A program made the position numbers and the translations under genes. The notes under the pieces were generated by a model. That model searched no databases and was not told where the DNA came from. It worked only from the letters and a program-made list of their open reading frames with translations. From NCBI GenBank assembly GCA_013152415.1, contig JAADGI010000019.1, positions 130,000-193,999 on the forward strand: DNA of 64,000 nt, in the 5' to 3' direction. This document shows, one piece after another, positions 3,375-13,709 of this stretch (positions are counted from its first letter, which is position 1; each line of letters opens with the position of its first letter). This stretch comes from Gammaproteobacteria bacterium. Its GTDB lineage: Bacteria > Pseudomonadota > Gammaproteobacteria > HyVt-429.

Positions 3375-3902
3375 CTAGGCCTCCTCAGGAACAGGTTGAT
3401 CTGATGGCTTTGCCTCGTCCACCCCGGATTCGGCCGTAGCTGCATTCGCATCGGGGGTATCTGTACCTTCTTCTTTGCCATCTGCGGCAGACTTCCCGTC
3501 CTCGCTGGCCTCTTTGTTATCCGCGGCAGGTTTCGCATCCTGGCGGTCTTCCTTGCTCTCTGAGCCGGAATCCTCGTCGTCACGGGTGTCTCTGGCCAAA
3601 GGCGACGCCTCAGTGATGGCCTTATCTCGTTTTAGCACCAAGGAGCGAATCACCGCATCATTAAACCGAAATGCATTCTCCAGCTCATCAAGGGAATCCT
3701 GACCACACTCTATGTTCATTAACACATAGTGGGCCTTGTGGATTTTATTGATGGGATAGGCGAGTTGGCGGCGACCCCAATCTTCCAGACGATGAATCTG
3801 GCCTTGGGTACCTTCAATCATAGTGCGGTACCGATCGATCATCGCTGGTACCTGCTCACTCTGGTCAGGATGGACCAGGAAAACAACTTCGTAATGACGC
3901 AT
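3375..3902 (-). CDS. rpsF: 30S ribosomal protein S6 with long acidic C-terminal tail
   Basis: [25 protein letters not shown] marks the S6 core. There is about 70 aa of D/E/K/A-rich tail. It directly abuts rpsR, with no priB between them. Confidence 0.95.
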
Positions 3903-4331
3903 TGTAGCTCCTTACGGGTTAGTAGCCTCCTGTCACGCTGGACAGTAAGACAAGGAGTGTTGATCACCCAGCTATGCGGTGACCAAGAGAGCGCCGGAGT
4001 CTAAAGGAAAATGGCCCCACTGGAAAGCCGGAGGACAAACTAAATGGGGGTTAACCAAGGGCAGCGGGGGCTGTCGCCAATGCACCATGGAGAGGCTTGG
4101 TCTCACCCCAGGCCAAACGACCAATCACCCAGACGGCGTCACCGCTGAGGCATCACGCCTCTCCCGAAAACGCCCACGGAGAGGTCTGTGAATCACAGGT
4201 CCCTGCCAGGGAGGGTCTTGCCAATAGACGTTCGCCTGAGCGTTGCCACAACAGATGATCCATATCACTGAAACTCGAAGTGATCATGGTACTTTCCGGG
4301 ACTGGCTTTCCCTACTACCCTGTCTTTTTTG

Positions 4332-4347
4332 CTAGACTCAAGTCTAG
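4332..4347. promoter_or_regulatory. 7-2-7 inverted repeat CTAGACT-CA-AGTCTAG at the head of the RiPP-like operon
   Basis: Perfect 7-bp arms read directly. It lies in the only sizeable plus-strand intergenic region upstream of the peptidase-like/HprK-like/PqqD/rSAM genes. The track ORF at 4329 begins with TTG inside this repeat, so the real start is probably downstream. Confidence 0.3.
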
Positions 4348-4370
4348 TACAAGCCGTTTCAGCCTTGATT

Positions 4371-4832
4371 ATGACCCCCTTTCAAGCACCAAGCCCATCT
4401 CGCCACACCACGACACGGAATTGCAATGTGGTGACAGGATTACGGGAAATGGCCCGTCGGCGGGCCCTGTGGATGGATGTAACAGGGGATTGTATGGCAC
4501 CACAGCTCAATGCCAACCAGCAGGTCTGCGTCATCAACCGCCGCCTCTATTGGCCTGGTGATGTGGTGGCCTTTCGGGCCTGGGACGGCCAACTTCTGGT
4601 CCATCGGGTGTTGGGATATCGATTTAAAGGGGGCCACCCGGAACTGGTCACCTGCGCCGACCGTGCCAGCAAAAATGATGTACCGATCCAACTCGACCAA
4701 GTCATCGGTAAAGTGGTCGATGTAGCCCCTCCCAGCGACTTGCTCCCAATTTCCTTCTCATGCCGGGTCCGGGCAATCATTCGCTATTACCAACTGGCCT
4801 GGCGACAGATCAAGATACGTCTGAAAACATGA
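4371..4832 (+). CDS. signal-peptidase (S26/S24)-like protein with Cys/His in place of the Ser/Lys dyad
   Basis: VTGDCMAPQL aligns to the SPase I box B (SGSMxPTL) with Ser to Cys. LLVHRVLGY aligns to box D (VKRVIG) with Lys to His. The start is uncertain: ATG candidates are at 4371 and 4449. The stop overlaps the start of the next gene (ATGA). Confidence 0.5.
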   Translation: MTPFQAPSPSRHTTTRNCNVVTGLREMARRRALWMDVTGDCMAPQLNANQQVCVINRRLYWPGDVVAFRAWDGQLLVHRVLGYRFKGGHPELVTCADRASKNDVPIQLDQVIGKVVDVAPPSDLLPISFSCRVRAIIRYYQLAWRQIKIRLKT

Positions 4833-5746
4833 GCTTTGCCGATCGTTTTGTCCTGGATTCAGATCAATTTACCCCATCCTCACCGGGCCAAGCCTTTGGC
4901 AATCATCGGCTGGTGATTGATTTTGCCGGGGGCCCCTACGGATTTGATGGTCTGAGTGCGACACAAACGGATCGCATACGGGAACGCTTCCAAGACCTGT
5001 GTAGTGAGGACACATCCCGGCAAGTCAAAGTAAACACCCTTCTGTATCGCACACAAAACCGGTCTTTCCCTGACTTTGATCTCGACAATTGGGAATACAC
5101 TCTCGATTTTGAATACAAAGAGGCGTCTGTGGGTATTGCCGGCCTAAAATTCTTTGCCTACTTCGACCTCAGGCAGGGCAAGCAAAGCCATCTGTGGACT
5201 TCGACCGAAGATGATGATTATTTTACAGGTGTTTTCGAAAATTACTTTCGTGTAGTGGTGGCCTATCGACTATTAGCCTGTGGCGGAGTCTTGCTACACA
5301 GCGCCGGGGTAATCGATGAGGGCAATGCATACCTATTCTTCGGACCTTCTAACGCCGGCAAGACGACTGTTTCTCGTTTGAGCCAAGACAGTGGCCACAG
5401 TGTCTTGAGTGATGACATCAATGCCTTGCTGGCCGGACCCGCCCAGGATGTAGTCGCTGAAAAAATGCCATTTGCCGGTGAATTAGGTCAAACGGCAACA
5501 CCCAGTGGCACCTATCCGGTGCGCGGCCTGTTTCGACTCCACCAGGGGCCACGCAATGCTGTACGTGATATGCGTCCAAGCGAGGGTATCGCTGCCCTAG
5601 TGGCATGCTCACCTTATGTCAACGCCGACCCCGTCCGCCAGGACAGGTTGTTCGAGAACCTGGAGCACCTGAGCACCATTACGCCGGTACGTCATTTAAC
5701 TTTCTCCCTAGACCAACCTCTTTGGCCTTTACTCACAGGCCACTAA
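4829..5746 (+). CDS. HPr kinase-related P-loop protein (HprK-like C-terminal domain)
   Basis: HSAGVIDEGNAYLFFGPSNAGKTTVSRL...VLSDDINAL shows a GxxxxGKT P-loop followed by an SDD motif, as in the HprK/P C-domain. It is translationally coupled to the preceding ORF. Confidence 0.6.
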   Translation: MSFADRFVLDSDQFTPSSPGQAFGNHRLVIDFAGGPYGFDGLSATQTDRIRERFQDLCSEDTSRQVKVNTLLYRTQNRSFPDFDLDNWEYTLDFEYKEASVGIAGLKFFAYFDLRQGKQSHLWTSTEDDDYFTGVFENYFRVVVAYRLLACGGVLLHSAGVIDEGNAYLFFGPSNAGKTTVSRLSQDSGHSVLSDDINALLAGPAQDVVAEKMPFAGELGQTATPSGTYPVRGLFRLHQGPRNAVRDMRPSEGIAALVACSPYVNADPVRQDRLFENLEHLSTITPVRHLTFSLDQPLWPLLTGH

Positions 5747-5758
5747 AATGAGAGTAAC

Positions 5759-6067
5759 GTGACCCATCTATCCACTGTCTACAAACCGAGAAAGGATGTT
5801 CGCTACCGCATTGTTGCCGATGAGGCTGTGGTTGTACGCCAACAATCAACAGAGGTGCTTGTCCTTAACGAGGTCGCCGCACGTATATTACAGCTTCTGG
5901 ACGCACAGACTACGGTTAATGAATTGATCCATGCATTGGAAGCGGAGTTTGATATCGGCCCATCTCAACTTGAACACGATGTCATGGCTTTCATCAAGGA
6001 ACTTTTGAATGCCGGAGTAATTATGCCGGCAACATCCAACACGCCAAAAAGTAGCGATGAACTTTAA
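5759..6067 (+). CDS. PqqD-family protein (RiPP recognition element)
   Basis: 102 aa. YRIVADEAVVV...LNEVAARILQLLDAQTTVNELIHALEAEFDIGPSQLEHDVMAFIKELLNAGVI matches the PqqD/RRE pattern. Confidence 0.75.
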   Translation: MTHLSTVYKPRKDVRYRIVADEAVVVRQQSTEVLVLNEVAARILQLLDAQTTVNELIHALEAEFDIGPSQLEHDVMAFIKELLNAGVIMPATSNTPKSSDEL

Positions 6068-6085
6068 TGTAGCGGCAAACTCACC

Positions 6086-6364
6086 ATGAATATCACGCCA
6101 TCGACTCTGTTGAAAAAAAAATCCGACATCAGGCACCGAACTATTGATAATGAAGGCATTATCATGTGCCAGAATTCGGCAGACATTATCGCGGTAAATG
6201 CGGTTGGCAGCCGCATACTTGAACTCATAGACGGGCACAAAACTATTGACGACTGTCTGGCCATACTTGTTAACGAGTTTGACGTTGAGCCGTTGCAACT
6301 GCAACAGGACTGCCTGGATTTTATTTTAGACCTGATGCAAAACGATATTCTGGAATTGGCCTGA
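6086..6364 (+). CDS. PqqD-family protein (second tandem RRE)
   Basis: 92 aa. HRTIDNEGII...VNAVGSRILELIDGHKTIDDCLAILVNEFDVEPLQLQQDCLDFILDLMQNDIL is a paralogue of the preceding ORF. Confidence 0.75.
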   Translation: MNITPSTLLKKKSDIRHRTIDNEGIIMCQNSADIIAVNAVGSRILELIDGHKTIDDCLAILVNEFDVEPLQLQQDCLDFILDLMQNDILELA

Positions 6365-6387
6365 GTACAACCCAAAAACCTGACGCA

Positions 6388-7515
6388 ATGCCTACGCTAC
6401 TAGAAAAACTCAAGTCCAAGGCTGTGGCCAATAACCAGCTTCTTTCTGTAACCCTGGAACTCACCTATCGCTGCAATCTGGATTGTTTTATCTGCTATAA
6501 CGATCGTGACACCCAGGGCCAACTATTATCTTTAAAGCAATACAGGTCATTATTATTGTCGCTACAGAAAATGCAGGTGATGTTTCTCACCCTGACCGGC
6601 GGCGAACCCATGCTCCACCCGGAATTTTGGCCTATTGCTCAATATGCCCATGACCTGGGGTTTGTTGTGCGCCTTAAAACCAACGGTCACGCCCTTAACG
6701 ACAAACTGGCACTGAAGTTGAGAGAAGAAGTTGACCCGTCCATGGTGGATATCAGCATCCATGGTGCCAGTGCCGATACGCACGATAGGCAAACCAAGGT
6801 CCCAGGCAGTTTCACAAGACTGATGAGAAATCTTGAGATTCTGAATGGCTACGGGGTGAAGGTAAATTTGATGATGACCATAAGCCAATGGAATTTCTCT
6901 GAATTGGAAAGAATCCAGTCTCTAGCGGACTCATTGGGATTTCACTTGGATGCCTCTTCCACCATTACACCACGAGACAACGGGGATCGCATGCCCCAGT
7001 CCATTTCAATATCGTCTGAACAGACACGCCAATTGATAAGCCCGCAAACGGATCGTCTGGGTACGCAGGCCGTTCATTTTGACAACAATAGCCAACCTGT
7101 TTCAGGCACCCTGAACAAAGAAAATACTGCTGCTACAAAAGCAGACGAGCCGCCTGTTAACAAGCAATGTGGCTCAGGCTCATCTATTCTGGTCATTGAT
7201 CCCTATGGCCACGTTTACCCTTGCATGCAACTGCGCCGATTACTGGGAAATATTCACCATCAATCAATTGAAGAAATCTGGAGCCATTCACCGTCCCTCA
7301 AGGAAGTGCGAGACCTGTCCGCTGCGGCCAAACAATTGGTGGATTCATATGGAGAGGGATCAGAATACCTGGGCTACTGCATGGGATTGGCTGAACTGGC
7401 AACTGGTGATCCGGTTAAGATCTACCCACAAGCACAGCAACACTTCGAACTCACCCGAAAACTGCAGCGAGAAAGAATCCTCAAAAAACTGAGTCGATCA
7501 GTAACCCTTCGCTAG
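6388..7515 (+). CDS. radical SAM / SPASM-domain peptide-maturase-like enzyme
   Basis: CNLDCFIC is a CX3CX2C radical SAM motif near the N-terminus. GGEPMLHPEF is a SAM-binding motif. The C-terminal Cys-rich region (CGSGSS...YPCMQL...GYCMG) is typical of SPASM auxiliary clusters. Confidence 0.85.
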   Translation: MPTLLEKLKSKAVANNQLLSVTLELTYRCNLDCFICYNDRDTQGQLLSLKQYRSLLLSLQKMQVMFLTLTGGEPMLHPEFWPIAQYAHDLGFVVRLKTNGHALNDKLALKLREEVDPSMVDISIHGASADTHDRQTKVPGSFTRLMRNLEILNGYGVKVNLMMTISQWNFSELERIQSLADSLGFHLDASSTITPRDNGDRMPQSISISSEQTRQLISPQTDRLGTQAVHFDNNSQPVSGTLNKENTAATKADEPPVNKQCGSGSSILVIDPYGHVYPCMQLRRLLGNIHHQSIEEIWSHSPSLKEVRDLSAAAKQLVDSYGEGSEYLGYCMGLAELATGDPVKIYPQAQQHFELTRKLQRERILKKLSRSVTLR

Positions 7516-7538
7516 AGTGCAGCAACACCCCAATGACT

Positions 7539-7715
7539 TCAAGAACCCTGGATGATAGTACACATCCCAATAGGGGTTCCTATGGATTTGCCTGGGGTAC
7601 AGACCGCCGCCACCACTTCCAGGTGTTCCCTGGAGATAATCGCAGGCTTTTCATAGACACGTTTGACAGACCTGCAATCATCTGCTGATTTTTTTTCGGT
7701 CTTCCCGGTTTTCAT
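7539..7715 (-). CDS. candidate small Cys/Thr/Gly-rich peptide (possible RiPP precursor), 58 aa
   Basis: Hand-translated minus-strand ORF, too short for the track: MKTGKTEKKSADDCRSVKRVYEKPAIISREHLEVVAAVCTPGKSIGTPIGMCTIIQGS. It has a Lys-rich N-terminus, a YEKPxI motif and three Cys. It lies 43 bp downstream of the C25-like gene and converges on the radical SAM gene. There is no strong RBS. Confidence 0.25.
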   Translation of the reverse strand: MKTGKTEKKSADDCRSVKRVYEKPAIISREHLEVVAAVCTPGKSIGTPIGMCTIIQGS

Positions 7716-7758
7716 TTAGCAGAAATCCATATTGCTGGTACACACTTTGTAAACATAA

Positions 7759-10700
7759 CTAGTGACGTAGCGTGAGCCCTGGATCCCCTAACAAAATATA
7801 GATTTTTGGAATGTAGGCAAAACTTCCAGTTCTTGCTCGATACTCTCCTAAACTCTGCACAATGGCCTCACCCAGAGTTTCCGTACCGGTGTCAAAAACC
7901 GCCTGGAAGAGCTCCTGGTTTAAGCGCAATGCCTCACTGTCCAAAGATTGCCCTGACGGCGCCCAAACCGCGATCGCACCGCCCCCACTACGCAACACCA
8001 AGTCTTCACCGAGGGCATTGAATCCTGGGATCTCAAAACGTCCTACTGAACACGTCAGGGCACTGACTATCGGGTAGAGGTCATTTACCAAGGTGGGCAC
8101 ATCGCTGGACATCAACAGGGCATTTAATCGATCCAGGCCACCGTGGCCACGATAATTGAGCCAACTGGTCCCCTGTGCCAAACCATCAAAAAGGCGGTTT
8201 CGGGCCTGGTCTATAGGCAAACTGTCGGAAAGATATATCTTATCAACGCTGATATTTTGCGGTAGCAAGGTCAACAGTGCATTGCTGTCCACGGCAAACT
8301 CTCCTGCACTTTGATCTCGCTTGTCGGCAAGCATCGTCACGCTCGAGAGGGTTGTGCTGGCCTCGTAGCGCTTAATCTTATCGATGACGACAGCGAGCTC
8401 CCCCGCATTAAGTACAGGTATACGCCCGATAGCAAATTCGGGCACACCGTCGTCACCTACAACATCTGCATAGGCATTATCGGAGGCCATAATGCCACCG
8501 AAGGGTGTTGCCACCAGCAACGGTGGTAACAAATTTCCACCTACCTGCCAATGATCAAGATAATCAAAGGTGCCATCACCCACCAACACTACGAATCGAG
8601 GCACACCGGACCAAGCGTGACGGACATACTCCAGCATGGACTTAATCGCCACCGGCGATCTTAAACCGTACCCAAAGGTATTGTAGACGTCTTCCAGCGA
8701 AACCACCTTGCTGCTCAATCCCTGGGCTTGCCTGTAATCGGCCAGTACCTGGGCCCCTGCCATCAGAGATTGTGGGGCGATAAGCAGGTAATCGGCACTA
8801 TTTCGCCGACGCTTCAGATGCGTAGCTTTTTCGGCAACCATGGCGATTGCAGACTTGGCTGCGGTATTGGCGACAACAAAATATTCCGCAGTCGGCGACG
8901 AGGGCCGAAAGCTGACTTGATAAGCTGTACCCGCCTGCTGAACCCGAACACCCTTAATGCGTTTAGGCCTGTTTGGGCGCGAAATATCCAGCACAAAGAT
9001 ATTGGTGTCTGAAAAGCCCGTCACCGTGATCACCTCGTTACCATCACCGCGTAACAGAAGTTGATTGTTGAGCGCCCGATAACTACGGTGATAATTCAAT
9101 TCCAAACTGTCAAGATAGACATAACTGTAGGCGACGCCTGTATCCAGCAAACCACCCAGCTCAATACTGTTGTCCCCTTCTTGCAGCAAATCCTGACTGA
9201 AACTAAATGTTAGCGTGGCTGCATCGGTGCCCGACAGGTAGCCGTCCCCCACCCGCTGGCCATTGACATCCACTTTGATGTGGTGATCAAGTTCAACTTT
9301 TGCGTCGTTACTGTAACCTTGAAGATTGACATTTAAGCTCACTTCGTCCGTTACACTGGCAAGCTCAGCGGCCTGAATGGTAAATACCTTGCTTGCGGCC
9401 CCGGCAATAATCACGTCCCAATGCCAGAAGTCACCCGCAGGATCGGTAGCGGTCACGGTGACCGGAACCACGTCCTGTTCGGCCTGAACCCGACTCAAAA
9501 AACTCTGCCCATCGGGTGCAGGGCCTGTCCTCCTGCCTTTCCTGGAATGCACCTGTTTGCCCTTGCCGCGAGACAACCAATAGACATTCTCATCGGTAAA
9601 ATTACTTTCCAGCGCCTCGGCATAGAAATAGAGCCCGGTGTTAGCTCGGGCCTTGATATAGGCCACAGATTTACCCCGGTTAGTGAGCCTTATCCGCCTG
9701 TGCTTTAATAACTTCCGGAACTGAGCGGACCCAAGCCCCAGCAAATCAGCAGCTTGTGCAGCATCCACGTAGTAAAGGCCCGCCTCTTTAACTGTGATCT
9801 TTACCCGTCCCCGACCTCGGTCCCGGTTTCGATGCTTTTCCTTCTTCAGTTTTGCGTGCCTTTTGGCAAGCTTGCTCTTGTCCAGGCGCTTGAGTTGCTT
9901 TGGGGATATCTCTTGGGCGTGGTGCGCATATTTCTTGCCCATCCGCTTGGCCCGCTTGTAGCCAGACGGCTTATCTGACACATAGCCCTCGCCATCCACG
10001 GTGACTGTAAATGGCCCATAGCGATGTTTTTTGCCGGTCGCTTCTACTTCAATCAATTTATAGCGGTATGTTTCTCCCGATACCGCACCTGAATCCATAA
10101 AGACGTAAGATCCTCCCTGCGGGGTATTGAGCAATGCGGGCAATATTTCATCATTGATCCGTTTGTATTTACCGGTATCCGGATCCTTTCGCTTTAAATG
10201 AAATCCCAAGGTCCCTATCTGCGAGGTCGTACGCCATTCAAGCTGTGTCCCACCATCCACAGTTCGCGCCATAAAAGACGCCAGGGAAACATAAGTTGTG
10301 CCACGCGGCTTAAAGGCGCACTCGACTGCTTCATAGTCCCCTGCCCCTCTGCTATTTGAACTGCGACCACCATGTAACGGCCAGCCTTCGGTGCCACTGC
10401 CTGTATCCGTCACCTGAGCAACCGCCACCGTCGGGCCACCGGGGCTGGCGGGTATGATGATTTCCCACAGCCGATTGCGGATGCGGTTGGGACCGGCGTT
10501 ACCGGTCAAACCGTAGAGCGTGGACGTAGCGGTGGCGCTGTTGTAGGCAAAGCTGAGACCTTCCATGTCTGCCGTGGTGCCTCCGCCATCGGCAAACGCG
10601 CCATAATCAACTGGCGCCACCGTGTTGGAACCGGAAGTCCAGTCAACTGCGTAGAGGTTACTGGGACTGCTGATCCAGAAACGGCCATAGCCCGAGGCAT

Positions 10701-11922
10701 TGGGATTTACATTCACCGGATCAATGCCAAGATCATCGGCCCGGGTCAGTCCTGATGAATTGCTGATGGTGATGTAATCAATACCCGCACCGAAGGTATC
10801 CGTTGCCATCTGACCTTCATTGGCACCGGAGGTCTCCACCACAAACAAAATCCGGGAACCCGAATTGCTACCGCTTTCGGGGGTATCAAGGGCAAACATC
10901 AAACCGGTATAAGGGTCAAAGGCCATGGCATCTACATCGGTGACGATACCAGAAGAAGTGCTGCCATCGGAGCCTGAACCAATGGGATTGAGCAACGGAA
11001 AAGTCGCACCCGAGGAGCGGTCAACCCGATAGATCTGGCCGCCGCTGGCGGTATAAAGCGTGCCGTCATCGGGGTCCATGGCCATAGTCTCGGCACCCCT
11101 GACACCATTGGCACCGACTACACAACTGCGACCGGTGTTGATATTGGCATCGGGGTTACCGCCGACACATTCAACCGGATCGGCAGCCGTTGGATTATCA
11201 TCAATGAGGTGGGTATAACGTAATAGATTGTCAGCATCCGAAATCAGATAGCAGATTTGACTCACAGGGGGTGCCAAATAGCCGGCAAATTCGACATGCA
11301 AGCGGGCAGCCTGGGTACGCCTGCCATTATAGGACTCTGCGGTACGCTGGCATGCGCTAGAGGCACAAGCACTACCCGCTTGAATAACAAATGTCATCGC
11401 GTTGCCGGCACTCCAACCACTGCGGTCGACAATTTCCTGGACGATGCTGGTCAGATCAGGGGTCCTTTTGTGCTCATCGTCACTATCGGCGACGTTCCAG
11501 GGACTGATTGACGACCAGGGGACGGTTGCCGAGGTCAGTGTACGACCTGAAATATTGTCGCTGGTGCTGAAGGTGACTGAATTGTCTGTATCTTCGCCGT
11601 TGATCACCACATTGGTGGCACCACTATCATTTTCATCTACGGTAAATTCGATATAGGCACGGGTAATACTTGTACCCTGGGGAACCTGTAAGTCCTGAAA
11701 TCGCATACCAACAAGTTGTTGGGTACTGCCATCAAAGACCAGCTCCAAATCAGAACTGGTGATGTACATGGAACCGGGGGGTGAACCTGAAAATTGCTCT
11801 TCCGCGTCGTCGGTACTCTGACTGACAATACGGTCGAGCTGGACCGCACTGGCAGGGACGCTGAATCCTAGCAGCAGTAAGCTCAGAAAAAACACCCCCC
11901 ATCTGCGGGAGGCCAGGATCAT
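7759..11922 (-). CDS. large secreted peptidase C25 (gingipain/clostripain-fold)-like protein
   Basis: Signal peptide MILASRRWGVFFLSLLLLGFSVPASA, so the start is taken at the internal Met. The C-terminal about 450 aa show NYRGHG (His) followed by SALTCSVGRFE (Cys), the order expected for the C25 His/Cys dyad. A central, extremely basic K/R-rich linker reads KRAKRMGKKYAHH...KLKKEKHRNRDRGRGR. Confidence 0.7.
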   Translation of the reverse strand: MILASRRWGVFFLSLLLLGFSVPASAVQLDRIVSQSTDDAEEQFSGSPPGSMYITSSDLELVFDGSTQQLVGMRFQDLQVPQGTSITRAYIEFTVDENDSGATNVVINGEDTDNSVTFSTSDNISGRTLTSATVPWSSISPWNVADSDDEHKRTPDLTSIVQEIVDRSGWSAGNAMTFVIQAGSACASSACQRTAESYNGRRTQAARLHVEFAGYLAPPVSQICYLISDADNLLRYTHLIDDNPTAADPVECVGGNPDANINTGRSCVVGANGVRGAETMAMDPDDGTLYTASGGQIYRVDRSSGATFPLLNPIGSGSDGSTSSGIVTDVDAMAFDPYTGLMFALDTPESGSNSGSRILFVVETSGANEGQMATDTFGAGIDYITISNSSGLTRADDLGIDPVNVNPNASGYGRFWISSPSNLYAVDWTSGSNTVAPVDYGAFADGGGTTADMEGLSFAYNSATATSTLYGLTGNAGPNRIRNRLWEIIIPASPGGPTVAVAQVTDTGSGTEGWPLHGGRSSNSRGAGDYEAVECAFKPRGTTYVSLASFMARTVDGGTQLEWRTTSQIGTLGFHLKRKDPDTGKYKRINDEILPALLNTPQGGSYVFMDSGAVSGETYRYKLIEVEATGKKHRYGPFTVTVDGEGYVSDKPSGYKRAKRMGKKYAHHAQEISPKQLKRLDKSKLAKRHAKLKKEKHRNRDRGRGRVKITVKEAGLYYVDAAQAADLLGLGSAQFRKLLKHRRIRLTNRGKSVAYIKARANTGLYFYAEALESNFTDENVYWLSRGKGKQVHSRKGRRTGPAPDGQSFLSRVQAEQDVVPVTVTATDPAGDFWHWDVIIAGAASKVFTIQAAELASVTDEVSLNVNLQGYSNDAKVELDHHIKVDVNGQRVGDGYLSGTDAATLTFSFSQDLLQEGDNSIELGGLLDTGVAYSYVYLDSLELNYHRSYRALNNQLLLRGDGNEVITVTGFSDTNIFVLDISRPNRPKRIKGVRVQQAGTAYQVSFRPSSPTAEYFVVANTAAKSAIAMVAEKATHLKRRRNSADYLLIAPQSLMAGAQVLADYRQAQGLSSKVVSLEDVYNTFGYGLRSPVAIKSMLEYVRHAWSGVPRFVVLVGDGTFDYLDHWQVGGNLLPPLLVATPFGGIMASDNAYADVVGDDGVPEFAIGRIPVLNAGELAVVIDKIKRYEASTTLSSVTMLADKRDQSAGEFAVDSNALLTLLPQNISVDKIYLSDSLPIDQARNRLFDGLAQGTSWLNYRGHGGLDRLNALLMSSDVPTLVNDLYPIVSALTCSVGRFEIPGFNALGEDLVLRSGGGAIAVWAPSGQSLDSEALRLNQELFQAVFDTGTETLGEAIVQSLGEYRARTGSFAYIPKIYILLGDPGLTLRH

Positions 11923-12566
11923 GCGGGGTGTCTGTTTTAATGAAAAACACGAAAACAAGACGGAGAGCGGTTGCAAAATACCCAACCCAGAGGAAAGATT
12001 CAGATCACGTGGGAACGGTAGGCTATTTTTCATGGTCATACCCCGATATTGGCTCGGCGGTCCCTGCGACCAAGTGCATGGTGCATCAAAATCAGGAAGT
12101 TCGCATTATCAAGGTGCCGCGTATGTGTGCCTGCCTGGTCTACCGGACCCTTGCTGCGGCAAACATTGCACCCTCAGATAATAGCGAAAAACCCACTAAT
12201 AATATGGTATTACTGCCCTGACTTAAACCAAAGTATAACCCAAACTGGCGCTGTTCCCCAGTCTTCCTGGGCCATGGTTTAGAGGGGGCTTGAATCTGTG
12301 CCCGGGCCATCAATGTAGACACAAAACCTGCACCGCTGCTTCCTTATCGACTGAAAATGGGAAATCTTTAAGCCAGGACTCACTCCCTGGGCCCAAGCCC
12401 AACCATATCAAAACCCATGACACACTGGGTCCTTTATGGATAAACTCTCCCCCCCATTGGCCCGAATGGGCACAGAGGTGTGAGACTATGTTTTGCGCGT
12501 ACCCTCAAATCCGGGAAAGGGCATTTCGCCAGATCAAATCAGCTTAGCTTGTGACGATAAATCAGT

Positions 12567-13709
12567 TTGACCCCTCTACCCGTTTACTTAGACATACTCT
12601 CTGGCCATCTGGCTTCTGAAGACTATAACCTGCCCAGGCACTGGCATGAGCACGATTGGCAGCGTTACCTGGACCTGGCTCAAAACCATGGTGTATTACC
12701 CCTTGTCCAGGACCGATTATTAAACGCAAACCATACCGTACAATCCCCACCTTCCATAAGGTCTGCCATTGAACAAGGCCTAAAAAACCAGGCCATCCTG
12801 GAAATTCTGCAAACACTGGAACTACAACGTGTTTTAGGTGCATTTAATAAAAACAACACCCCGGTCCTGGTGTTTAAGGGGGGTGCCCTTGCCCACAGCC
12901 ACTATCCCGAGGCCAAACTACGCCCCCGGGATGATACTGACCTGTTAATTGGGCAATCAAATCGTGAACAATCTGCAGAAATTCTTGAGGTACTTGGCTA
13001 TAGCGCCCAAAACACCATTAGTGGACGTCGCATCATGCACCAGTGTAACTATAGCTATACCGATCAGCAGGGCTGTCCCCATGTGGTCGACTTACACTGG
13101 CGCCTGAGTAATCCGACTGCGTTTTCTGAGCTGTTGGATTTTGAGAGTCTGTGGCAACGCTCGGTGCTGATTCCAGTTCTTGGCCAAGGTGCACGGTGTC
13201 CGACCCAAGTCGATGCGCTATTGATTGCATGCATCCATCGTCTCGCCCATCACCACAATAATCATCGATTGATCTGGCTGATGGACATTCACCTGCTGCT
13301 AACGGCTCTCAGCAAGTCGGAGTCATTGGAATTTGCCCGACGGGCACGAGAGATCGGCGTAGCAGCCATTTGTACGCAGGGGCTAAAACTCAGCCGGGAC
13401 TATTTTAACACCAAGCTCTCTCCCGCCCTGCTCAAAATACTGTCCCAAACCGAAGCCACGAAGGTAAGTAAGGCAGAGAGCCATACCCGTAAATACCTTA
13501 ACAAAGATAGAAGCCACTGGGATAACTACATAGATGACTTGCGTGCGCTACCACACTGGCGGGCCCGAGTGGCTTATCTTCACGAGACCTTGTTCCCGGA
13601 TGCAGATTACTTGCTCGGTCGCTACAATACCCGCCACCGAATCTTACTGCCCATACTGTATCTGTATCGCCTGCTACGTGGCTTTCTCAGGCTACTGCAA
13701 AAACGCTAG
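12567..13709 (+). CDS. uncharacterised nucleotidyltransferase-family protein (PF14907-like)
   Basis: 380 aa with a TTG start. The N-terminal region (LDLAQNHGVLPLVQDRL) and central NTase-like segment (VLVFKGGALAHSHYPEAKLRPRDDTDLLI) resemble the family that co-occurs with PqqD/radical SAM/HprK-like cassettes. It is divergent from the C25-like gene. Confidence 0.6.
   Translation: MTPLPVYLDILSGHLASEDYNLPRHWHEHDWQRYLDLAQNHGVLPLVQDRLLNANHTVQSPPSIRSAIEQGLKNQAILEILQTLELQRVLGAFNKNNTPVLVFKGGALAHSHYPEAKLRPRDDTDLLIGQSNREQSAEILEVLGYSAQNTISGRRIMHQCNYSYTDQQGCPHVVDLHWRLSNPTAFSELLDFESLWQRSVLIPVLGQGARCPTQVDALLIACIHRLAHHHNNHRLIWLMDIHLLLTALSKSESLEFARRAREIGVAAICTQGLKLSRDYFNTKLSPALLKILSQTEATKVSKAESHTRKYLNKDRSHWDNYIDDLRALPHWRARVAYLHETLFPDADYLLGRYNTRHRILLPILYLYRLLRGFLRLLQKR

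Follow-up and report, generated by a model that had tools for sequence, protein, structure and literature searches.

Comparative sequence analysis identifies the minus-strand open reading frame at positions 7539-7715 of the window (the whole stretch of 64,000 nucleotides of gammaproteobacterial DNA that was analysed) as a genuine gene, which quite likely encodes the precursor (substrate) peptide of a cassette that comprises an S24-like peptidase, a ScmC-type kinase-like protein, PqqD-family proteins and a radical SAM enzyme. Because members of this peptide family are found almost always next to the radical SAM enzyme, PqqD and the kinase-like protein, the peptide is very probably the missing substrate of the cassette.

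A small gene under purifying selection

The radical SAM gene, on the plus strand, ends at position 7515 (TAG), and the C25-like gene, on the minus strand, ends with a stop codon at 7759-7761; the two genes thus converge on a gap of 243 bp (7516-7758). The minus-strand frame within this gap consists of 58 codons and a stop (7539-7541), with the translation MKTGKTEKKSADDCRSVKRVYEKPAIISREHLEVVAAVCTPGKSIGTPIGMCTIIQGS, and its ATG immediately follows an in-frame TAA, which leaves no room for a longer version. A preliminary description of this DNA had proposed a 58-aa candidate precursor at these positions of the gap, and the translation it quoted was reproduced exactly; however, the space is not unannotated, as had been stated, given that the source record, a Gammaproteobacteria MAG, already includes the frame as GXP09_08155, 'hypothetical protein'.

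The length of 58 aa is not significant by itself, since 129 open reading frames of 40 aa or more occur within the first 16 kb; what places the frame above chance is its conservation, both in an ortholog in loci L001 and L014 and in 439 related clusters (see below). L001 is an Acidiferrobacteraceae MAG that was found by a genome scan with the radical SAM protein and has the same gene order, with a radical SAM enzyme 74% identical to that of the window; the sequence of metagenome locus L014 is the same as that of L001. At the same position on the minus strand, these loci carry a 59-aa frame with 81% identity to the window peptide, and the sole indel between the two genes is one whole codon (3 nt). 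Substitutions at codon positions 1, 2 and 3 number 8, 7 and 16, respectively, and the dN/dS value is 0.26, compared to 0.10 to 0.18 for the neighbouring cassette genes. By these measures of sequence divergence, the peptide gene is shown to evolve under purifying selection.

It is hardly credible, then, that the frame arose by chance in the 3' untranslated or intergenic region of two convergent genes, or that the real gene is the overlapping plus-strand frame (7533-7688). Consistent with such an origin, no Shine-Dalgarno sequence precedes the peptide frame, the gap's minus strand has no promoter-like site, and it is common for real genes to have open antisense frames, the plus-strand frame being open in L001 as well. 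The dN/dS value and the whole-codon indel argue against it, as do conservation at the protein level that reaches loci with radical SAM enzymes only 31-45% identical to that of the window and the 439 clusters among representative proteins. The plus-strand frame was rejected since in L001 it lacks an ATG, GTG or TTG start; its conservation only mirrors that of the minus-strand gene. The preliminary description was therefore right that at most one of the two overlapping frames could be real; the competing frame that it reported does exist, but encodes 51 aa, not 50, the span 7533-7688 including the stop.

The absence of a Shine-Dalgarno sequence is shared with all other genes of the cassette (4371-13709), at none of which one was recognizable; the only gene nearby with such a sequence (AAGGAG) is rpsF, next to the cassette. 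Scanning for promoters and terminators yielded nothing on the minus strand of the gap, with promoter totals at the level of shuffled sequences, and an Rfam search of the gap for an RNA element yielded nothing relevant at E ≤ 1. The fold z-score of the gap (−2.5) is unremarkable for a coding region.

The frame at 3979-4191, previously named as a second, weak candidate, was rejected: it is not conserved, the region upstream of approximately 4283 cannot be aligned with L014, and it returned no family match. The plus-strand segment 4283-4370, the approximately 90 nt before the start codon of the S24-like gene, is retained in L014, with unalignable sequence further upstream, and is probably the promoter or 5' UTR of the cassette. 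Two further features of L001 were observed, namely a 17-nt overlap between the 3' ends of the peptide and radical SAM genes, and a C25 gene that is broken near its 3' end into overlapping minus-strand frames (3676-3861 and 3837-8084), which is a frameshift or an assembly error.

The peptide family and its signature

Word-based search with the single peptide retrieved only the peptide itself, and homologs were obtained once syntenic loci provided an alignment. These loci included L002, with a 63-aa homolog directly upstream of PqqD-radical SAM, and L003, with a 78-aa homolog between the C25 gene and a ScmC-PqqD-radical SAM-S24 array; in both, the radical SAM enzyme is 40-45% identical to that of the window. 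With a profile of these peptides, the database proteins P0002-P0006 were recovered, each of them in such a context, and a metagenome scan with the radical SAM alignment added 80 loci. A profile of six peptides (alignment A4) was then run on 1.84 billion representative proteins (E ≤ 1e-3) and retrieved 439 clusters at 50% identity, from sources that include Gammaproteobacteria, Desulfobacterales, Thermoanaerobaculia-type and other metagenomic lineages; there was no match in the plasmid collection.

Among the best 149 small proteins of the 439 clusters, 148 share a single full architecture: [RK]xYxxPxΦΦSxExLExxAxxC, a variable loop with an invariant lysine, a second cysteine, a tail and a terminal serine or threonine. 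The leader block is preceded in these 148 proteins by 14-59 variable residues, often basic, and YxxPxΦ is present in 149/149 of the representatives. The loop between the cysteines spans 7-24 residues and contains lysine in 148/148 cases (exactly one lysine in 143), which is never replaced by arginine and is preceded by glycine (110), alanine (18) or serine (11) in 139 of the 148. The tail after the second cysteine is 5-13 residues long, and the last residue is serine in 145 and threonine in 4 of the 149 representatives. Such a wide spread of loop and tail lengths is unusual for a fixed ring size.

All elements of this architecture are identifiable in the window peptide (all positions on the minus strand). 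The leader motif Y21-E-K-P24-A-I26 (YxxPxΦ; 7638-7655), a putative RRE/PqqD recognition element, is followed by the conserved second leader block E30-H-L32-E33-V-V-A36 (ExLExxA; 7608-7628). Y21, P24, S28, E30, L32, E33 and A36 are the invariant residues of the leader block, and the last four of these are invariant in alignments A1 and A4 and are seen across the family. The putative core (7542-7601) consists of the first cysteine, C39 (codon 7599-7601), a loop with the invariant K43 (7587-7589), the second cysteine, C52 (7560-7562), and a tail that ends in QGS, with S58 (7542-7544) at the C-terminus; apart from C39, K43, C52 and S58, the core is variable. The peptide has no signal sequence, whereas the C25 protein has one. 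The 'YxKPxI' motif and the cysteines pointed out in the preliminary description are conserved from the window to Desulfobacterales and Thermoanaerobaculia-type loci, with tyrosine, proline, both cysteines and the C-terminal serine invariant and a hydrophobic residue in the isoleucine position. The strongest features were absent from that description, namely the invariant loop lysine, the invariant C-terminal serine and the constant placement of the peptide gene at the C25 3' end (see below).

Pfam-A and NCBIfam models gave no match to five diverse peptides even at E ≤ 10, and no description of the family was found in the literature searched; the family is, apparently, undescribed. In one database protein, P0255 (714 aa), the C-terminus of a C25 peptidase continues in frame into an entire precursor peptide (...KKPYEPPRIVSREPLEAVAAVCSPPGKANPGACPTGPISS); this may be a real fusion, a stop-codon read-through or a sequencing error.

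Genomic context of the peptide gene

The cassette of the window extends from approximately 4371 to 13709, between dnaB/rplI/rpsF and a Metallophos gene. A matching peptide was detected in 45 of the 88 loci of the family, many of which are short contigs. When the comparison was limited to the 23 radical SAM loci with adequate flanks (2.5 kb or more before the radical SAM gene and 1.5 kb or more after it), the peptide was found in 22 of them, beside PqqD, the radical SAM enzyme and a ScmC-type protein, in 18 by HMM and in four divergent cases (L075, L077, L092 and L093) by pattern. Thus, conservation of the peptide next to homologous radical SAM and PqqD genes, which the preliminary description had named as the check on its proposal, was clearly observed. 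L041 has an adequate flank and no peptide by either HMM or pattern; five further genomic contexts also carry the peptide. The contig of L004 begins within the ScmC-like gene, so that nothing follows from its lack of a peptide, and L005-L010 were left out as radical SAM enzymes of other families, with 24-29% identity over the greater part of the match (in L010, the match covers a 38-residue stretch only).

The position of the peptide gene relative to the enzymes varies. It is located directly upstream of PqqD-radical SAM, on the same strand, in several loci (L002, L012, L013, L025, L032 and L055), and upstream of ScmC-PqqD-radical SAM in L003, L011, L043 and L047. Its position relative to the C25 gene persists, directly downstream and on the same strand, in approximately 30 loci and across several rearrangements: C25-peptide-PqqD-radical SAM, the other strand encoding ScmC and S24; C25-peptide-ScmC-PqqD-radical SAM-S24; C25-peptide-S24-ScmC-PqqD-radical SAM; and the window type, in which S24-ScmC-PqqD-radical SAM converges on peptide-C25. 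A distance of 44 nt separates the C25 stop codon from the start of the peptide gene in the window, where the peptide gene is on the C25 strand and opposite to the radical SAM gene; with the C25-peptide unit inverted relative to the radical SAM operon, transcription of the peptide probably accompanies or directly follows that of the C25 gene. A distant radical SAM clade (31-35% identity) has the order peptide-PqqD-radical SAM-ScmC, with no adjacent C25 gene; hence, the invariant core of the system consists of the peptide, PqqD, the radical SAM enzyme and the ScmC-type protein.

This persistent linkage raises the question of whether it is the C25 peptidase for which the peptide serves as partner, substrate or inhibitor, instead of being a substrate of the radical SAM enzyme, its disulfide-closed loop offering the lysine to a cysteine peptidase of the gingipain type (Lys/Arg-directed) or the PorU type (sortase-like). 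Such a role, which we regard as improbable, would agree with the position of the peptide gene after C25 throughout the rearrangements, with the fusion in P0255, and with the loop lysine, which is never arginine and nearly always follows glycine, alanine or serine. However, the distant clade lacks an adjacent C25 gene, the peptide carries an RRE-type leader in its conserved YxxPxΦ block, and the C25 protein is secreted whereas the peptide has no signal peptide. The two roles are also not mutually exclusive, in that C25 may be the processing protease of the radical SAM product.

Several loci have additional neighbours. In a subclade (L016-L018, L029, L036 and L094-L098), a Wzy_C(+TPR) gene lies directly upstream of the cassette, which is also preceded by NTP_transf_5; further neighbours there are Bac_transf, Poly_export, ATP-sulfurylase/APS kinase (PAPS synthesis) and glycosyltransferases, and MTHFR/MetH recur on one side. 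NTP_transf_5 is the only one of these polysaccharide-type genes in the window, and no Wzy_C was found in its 64 kb.

Enzymes of the cassette

The presumed maturase is the radical SAM enzyme (6388-7515, plus strand), which contains a CX3CX2C motif and a reduced, SPASM/twitch-like C-terminal domain. It matches Pfam Radical_SAM at 2.3e-19 and SPASM at 1.7e-09, the latter over positions 1-52 of the 67 of the profile only. Beyond the SAM cluster, the only invariant cysteines are C261, C279 and C331 (C261-x12-G-x4-C279), and the CX2CX5CX3C block of the full SPASM domain is missing; three invariant cysteines after the SAM-cluster motif imply that SPASM is truncated to a twitch-like form with a single auxiliary cluster. 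The protein scores under every NCBIfam cut-off, the nearest models being peptide or cofactor maturases (MftC, StsB, ScmE, PqqE and AlbA), and its sequence matches in the PDB are BlsE, SkfB, PqqE and CteB.

Upstream on the same strand are two PqqD-family genes, of which the first (5759-6067; Pfam PqqD 3.3e-17) encodes an RRE-type peptide chaperone that scores 34.2 bits against TIGR04353 (HPr-rel-A system PqqD; cut-off 35), and the second (6086-6364) matches PqqD at 1.1e-11. The adjacent tandem pair is confined to the window and L001/L014; most related loci encode one PqqD, and a few (L055 and L057) have a second, non-adjacent match. One PqqD may serve the radical SAM enzyme and the other the kinase-like protein.

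The ScmC-family protein (4829-5746, plus strand) has a PEPCK/HprK kinase fold and is the presumed peptide kinase. PF27840 (ScmC) is the precomputed annotation of this protein (P0007) and of most of its homologs. The PEPCK match extends over two domains, and a Pfam scan at E ≤ 0.01, with models that apparently did not include PF27840, yielded a weak match to PEPCK_ATP and no other, so that the protein is not a member of Hpr_kinase_C. In NCBIfam it matches only ScmC, weakly and below the cut-off, and a sequence search of the PDB returned one weak match at chance level.

Two peptidases are encoded. The S24/S26-like protein (4371-4832, plus strand; start assigned with L001 as the reference), a candidate for the leader peptidase, matches Pfam Peptidase_S24 at 4e-05 and NCBIfam sigpep_I_arch at 3.3e-08, below the cut-off. 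The site of the serine nucleophile is occupied by cysteine (GDCMAP; GxCMxP in 22 of 24 homologs) and that of the lysine general base by His-Arg; these replacements suggest that the LexA/signal-peptidase fold is present here in a Cys/His variant. The secreted, 1426-aa C25-family (gingipain/PorU-like) peptidase (7759-12039, minus strand) has an N-terminal signal-like segment and matches Pfam Peptidase_C25 over the whole profile (1.2e-72); it scores 210 bits against the PorU model (cut-off 420), and a sequence search of the PDB with it found no match. Finally, an NTP_transf_5 nucleotidyltransferase (12567-13709, plus strand; Pfam PF14907, 1.3e-48), which recurs in L001, L003, L014, L038, L050, L094 and L098, is a possible second enzyme acting on the terminal serine.

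Comparison with known peptide-modifying systems

The closest parallels to the leader and the terminal serine are the lasso peptide systems of paeninodin (PadeA/B1/K) and pseudomycoidin (PsmA/B1/K/N), which likewise combine a YxxPxΦ leader, a PqqD-type RRE and a terminal serine with an HprK-fold kinase and an uncharacterised nucleotidyltransferase encoded alongside; the lasso motif YxxPxL is matched by YEKPAI (residues 21-26). Nevertheless, the peptide was rejected as a lasso precursor. The cassette lacks both the lasso cyclase (a homolog of asparagine synthase) and the B2 transglutaminase protease, neither of which was found in the cassette, in the open reading frames scanned with Pfam up to 30.8 kb or in the syntenic loci; the core offers no Asp/Glu acceptor, which a lasso precursor has at core position 7-9, since E33 is the last acidic residue; and the spacing does not fit, core residue 1 being expected 17 residues after the tyrosine, where the peptide has V38 with A36 at −2, so that there is no Thr/Ile at −2 at the lasso spacing. 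Also, the central enzyme here is a radical SAM enzyme, and the kinase is of the ScmC type, not Hpr_kinase_C.

The sactipeptide and ranthipeptide systems (AlbA, SkfB, CteB, PapB and StsB types) likewise feature a short precursor with conserved core cysteines and an RRE/PqqD-assisted radical SAM enzyme with a SPASM or twitch domain. However, when compared to the curated models of thioether-forming maturases (StsB, AlbA, PapB and SCIFF-type), the present enzyme falls far under the cut-offs (92.6 vs. 625 for StsB, 71 vs. 850 for AlbA and 62.7 vs. 340 for PapB). Further differences are that only three auxiliary cysteines are conserved here, that the peptide has an invariant lysine and an invariant C-terminal serine, and that the partners include kinase-like, S24-like and C25 proteins.

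The SynChlorMet cassette (NCBIfam ScmC/ScmD/ScmE/ScmF) similarly encodes a ScmC-family protein, a PqqD homolog and one or more radical SAM/SPASM enzymes. Here too, the scores are far below the cut-offs (23.8 vs. 125 for ScmC, 34.2 vs. 100 for ScmD, 91.2 vs. 400 for ScmE and 82.8 vs. 400 for ScmF), L003 and L092 likewise falling under them, and the cassette analysed here differs in having one radical SAM enzyme, not two, as well as S24-like and C25 peptidases. Nothing relevant was found in the literature searched on the SynChlorMet cassette, ScmC, a C25-radical SAM cassette, an HPr kinase with SPASM or PF14907.

The conservation of only Cys, Lys, Cys and the terminal Ser could also be read, if with little probability, as a sign that the peptide is the scaffold of a small cofactor-like molecule, following the logic of PQQ and mycofactocin, with peptidases discarding the remainder. 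The PQQ/mycofactocin toolkit consists of PqqD and a SPASM-type radical SAM enzyme, the best-scoring models include MftC and PqqE, all but four core residues are hypervariable, and the cassette does encode two peptidases. However, the scores of the radical SAM enzyme remain far below the cut-offs (121.5 vs. 265 for MftC and 74 vs. 381 for PqqE), the peptide has neither the Glu-x3-Tyr of PqqA nor the Gly-Val-Tyr end of MftA, and its invariant residues are far apart with variable spacing, whereas the reacting residues of PqqA and MftA are close together at a fixed spacing; no oxidoreductase partner is conserved in the loci.

[quoted passage not shown] The likeness consists in the presence of Wzy_C beside the cassette in the subclade loci, there being none in the window, and the link is by analogy only; furthermore, in contrast to the pilin substrates, the peptides of the present family are 50-100 aa long, without a pilin fold or signal peptide.

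Two general features of a precursor in an RRE-dependent radical SAM RiPP pathway were observed, namely a short open reading frame next to the maturase, with a conserved leader and a more variable core, and co-occurrence of the peptide with the RRE (PqqD) and the radical SAM enzyme in different genomes. By analogy, the system appears to work like an RRE-dependent radical SAM RiPP pathway with a lasso-style leader and terminal-serine tailoring.

Proposed mechanism

Under the preferred reading of the peptide as the substrate of the radical SAM enzyme, the leader block [RK]xYxxPxΦΦSxExLExxA would dock on the PqqD-type RRE, as the lasso motif YxxPxL does on B1. In lasso biosynthesis, it is the PqqD-like B1 protein that binds the YxxPxL leader motif, which is why YxxPxΦ is taken here as the docking site of PqqD. 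The lasso-leader motif spans positions −17 to −12 (PMC10368454).

The radical SAM enzyme, with one SAM cluster and three further cysteines, would then introduce an intramolecular cross-link, or several, within the Cys39-...Lys43...-Cys52 loop. The chemistry is most likely that of a Cys-derived thioether, possibly onto the invariant lysine, this being the most economical guess for the Cys-Lys-Cys loop. As in CteB-type enzymes, an auxiliary cluster with no more than three conserved protein ligands would have a site open to a cysteine of the substrate.

At the C-terminus, the ScmC protein, with its PEPCK/HprK fold, would phosphorylate the side chain of Ser58, and NTP_transf_5 may extend this phosphate, in the manner of PsmK and PsmN on pseudomycoidin; PsmN is presumably linked to PF14907. 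In lasso precursors, homologs of HprK phosphorylate the C-terminal serine, and a nucleotidyltransferase adds hexose to that serine phosphate (PMC6993621, PMC8498205). The cytoplasmic Cys/His S24-like peptidase, the secreted C25 peptidase or both would remove the leader or otherwise process the product.

As for the fate of that product, there is some chance, albeit a small one, that the peptide, made on the ribosome, serves as the acceptor of a cell-surface glycoconjugate and is not an antibiotic-type RiPP. Jointly, and at the same low probability, this proposal holds that, after cross-linking of the Cys-Lys-Cys loop by the radical SAM enzyme, the terminal Ser/Thr would first be phosphorylated and then either phospho-glycosylated or joined to a polysaccharide by NTP_transf_5 and, in many lineages, an adjacent Wzy_C ligase, and that the PorU-like C25 protein would act as a sortase-type transpeptidase. 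If true, it would place exopolysaccharide machinery in the same pathway as a radical SAM enzyme and a leader/kinase module of the lasso type.

Implications

A Pfam family (ScmC) for the kinase-like component was already known, and neither Pfam and NCBIfam nor the papers searched contained a model of the precursor. The peptide would supply the missing substrate for a widespread, uncharacterised radical SAM/PqqD/ScmC cassette, and its signature (a leader resembling that of lasso peptides, Cys-(G/A/S)Lys-Cys and serine at the C-terminus) is so unusually sharp that the chemistry can be tested directly. Some lineages have the cassette linked to polysaccharide loci. More generally, the joining of a lasso-type leader, RRE and terminal-serine kinase module to a radical SAM enzyme is suggestive of modular exchange among RiPP classes.
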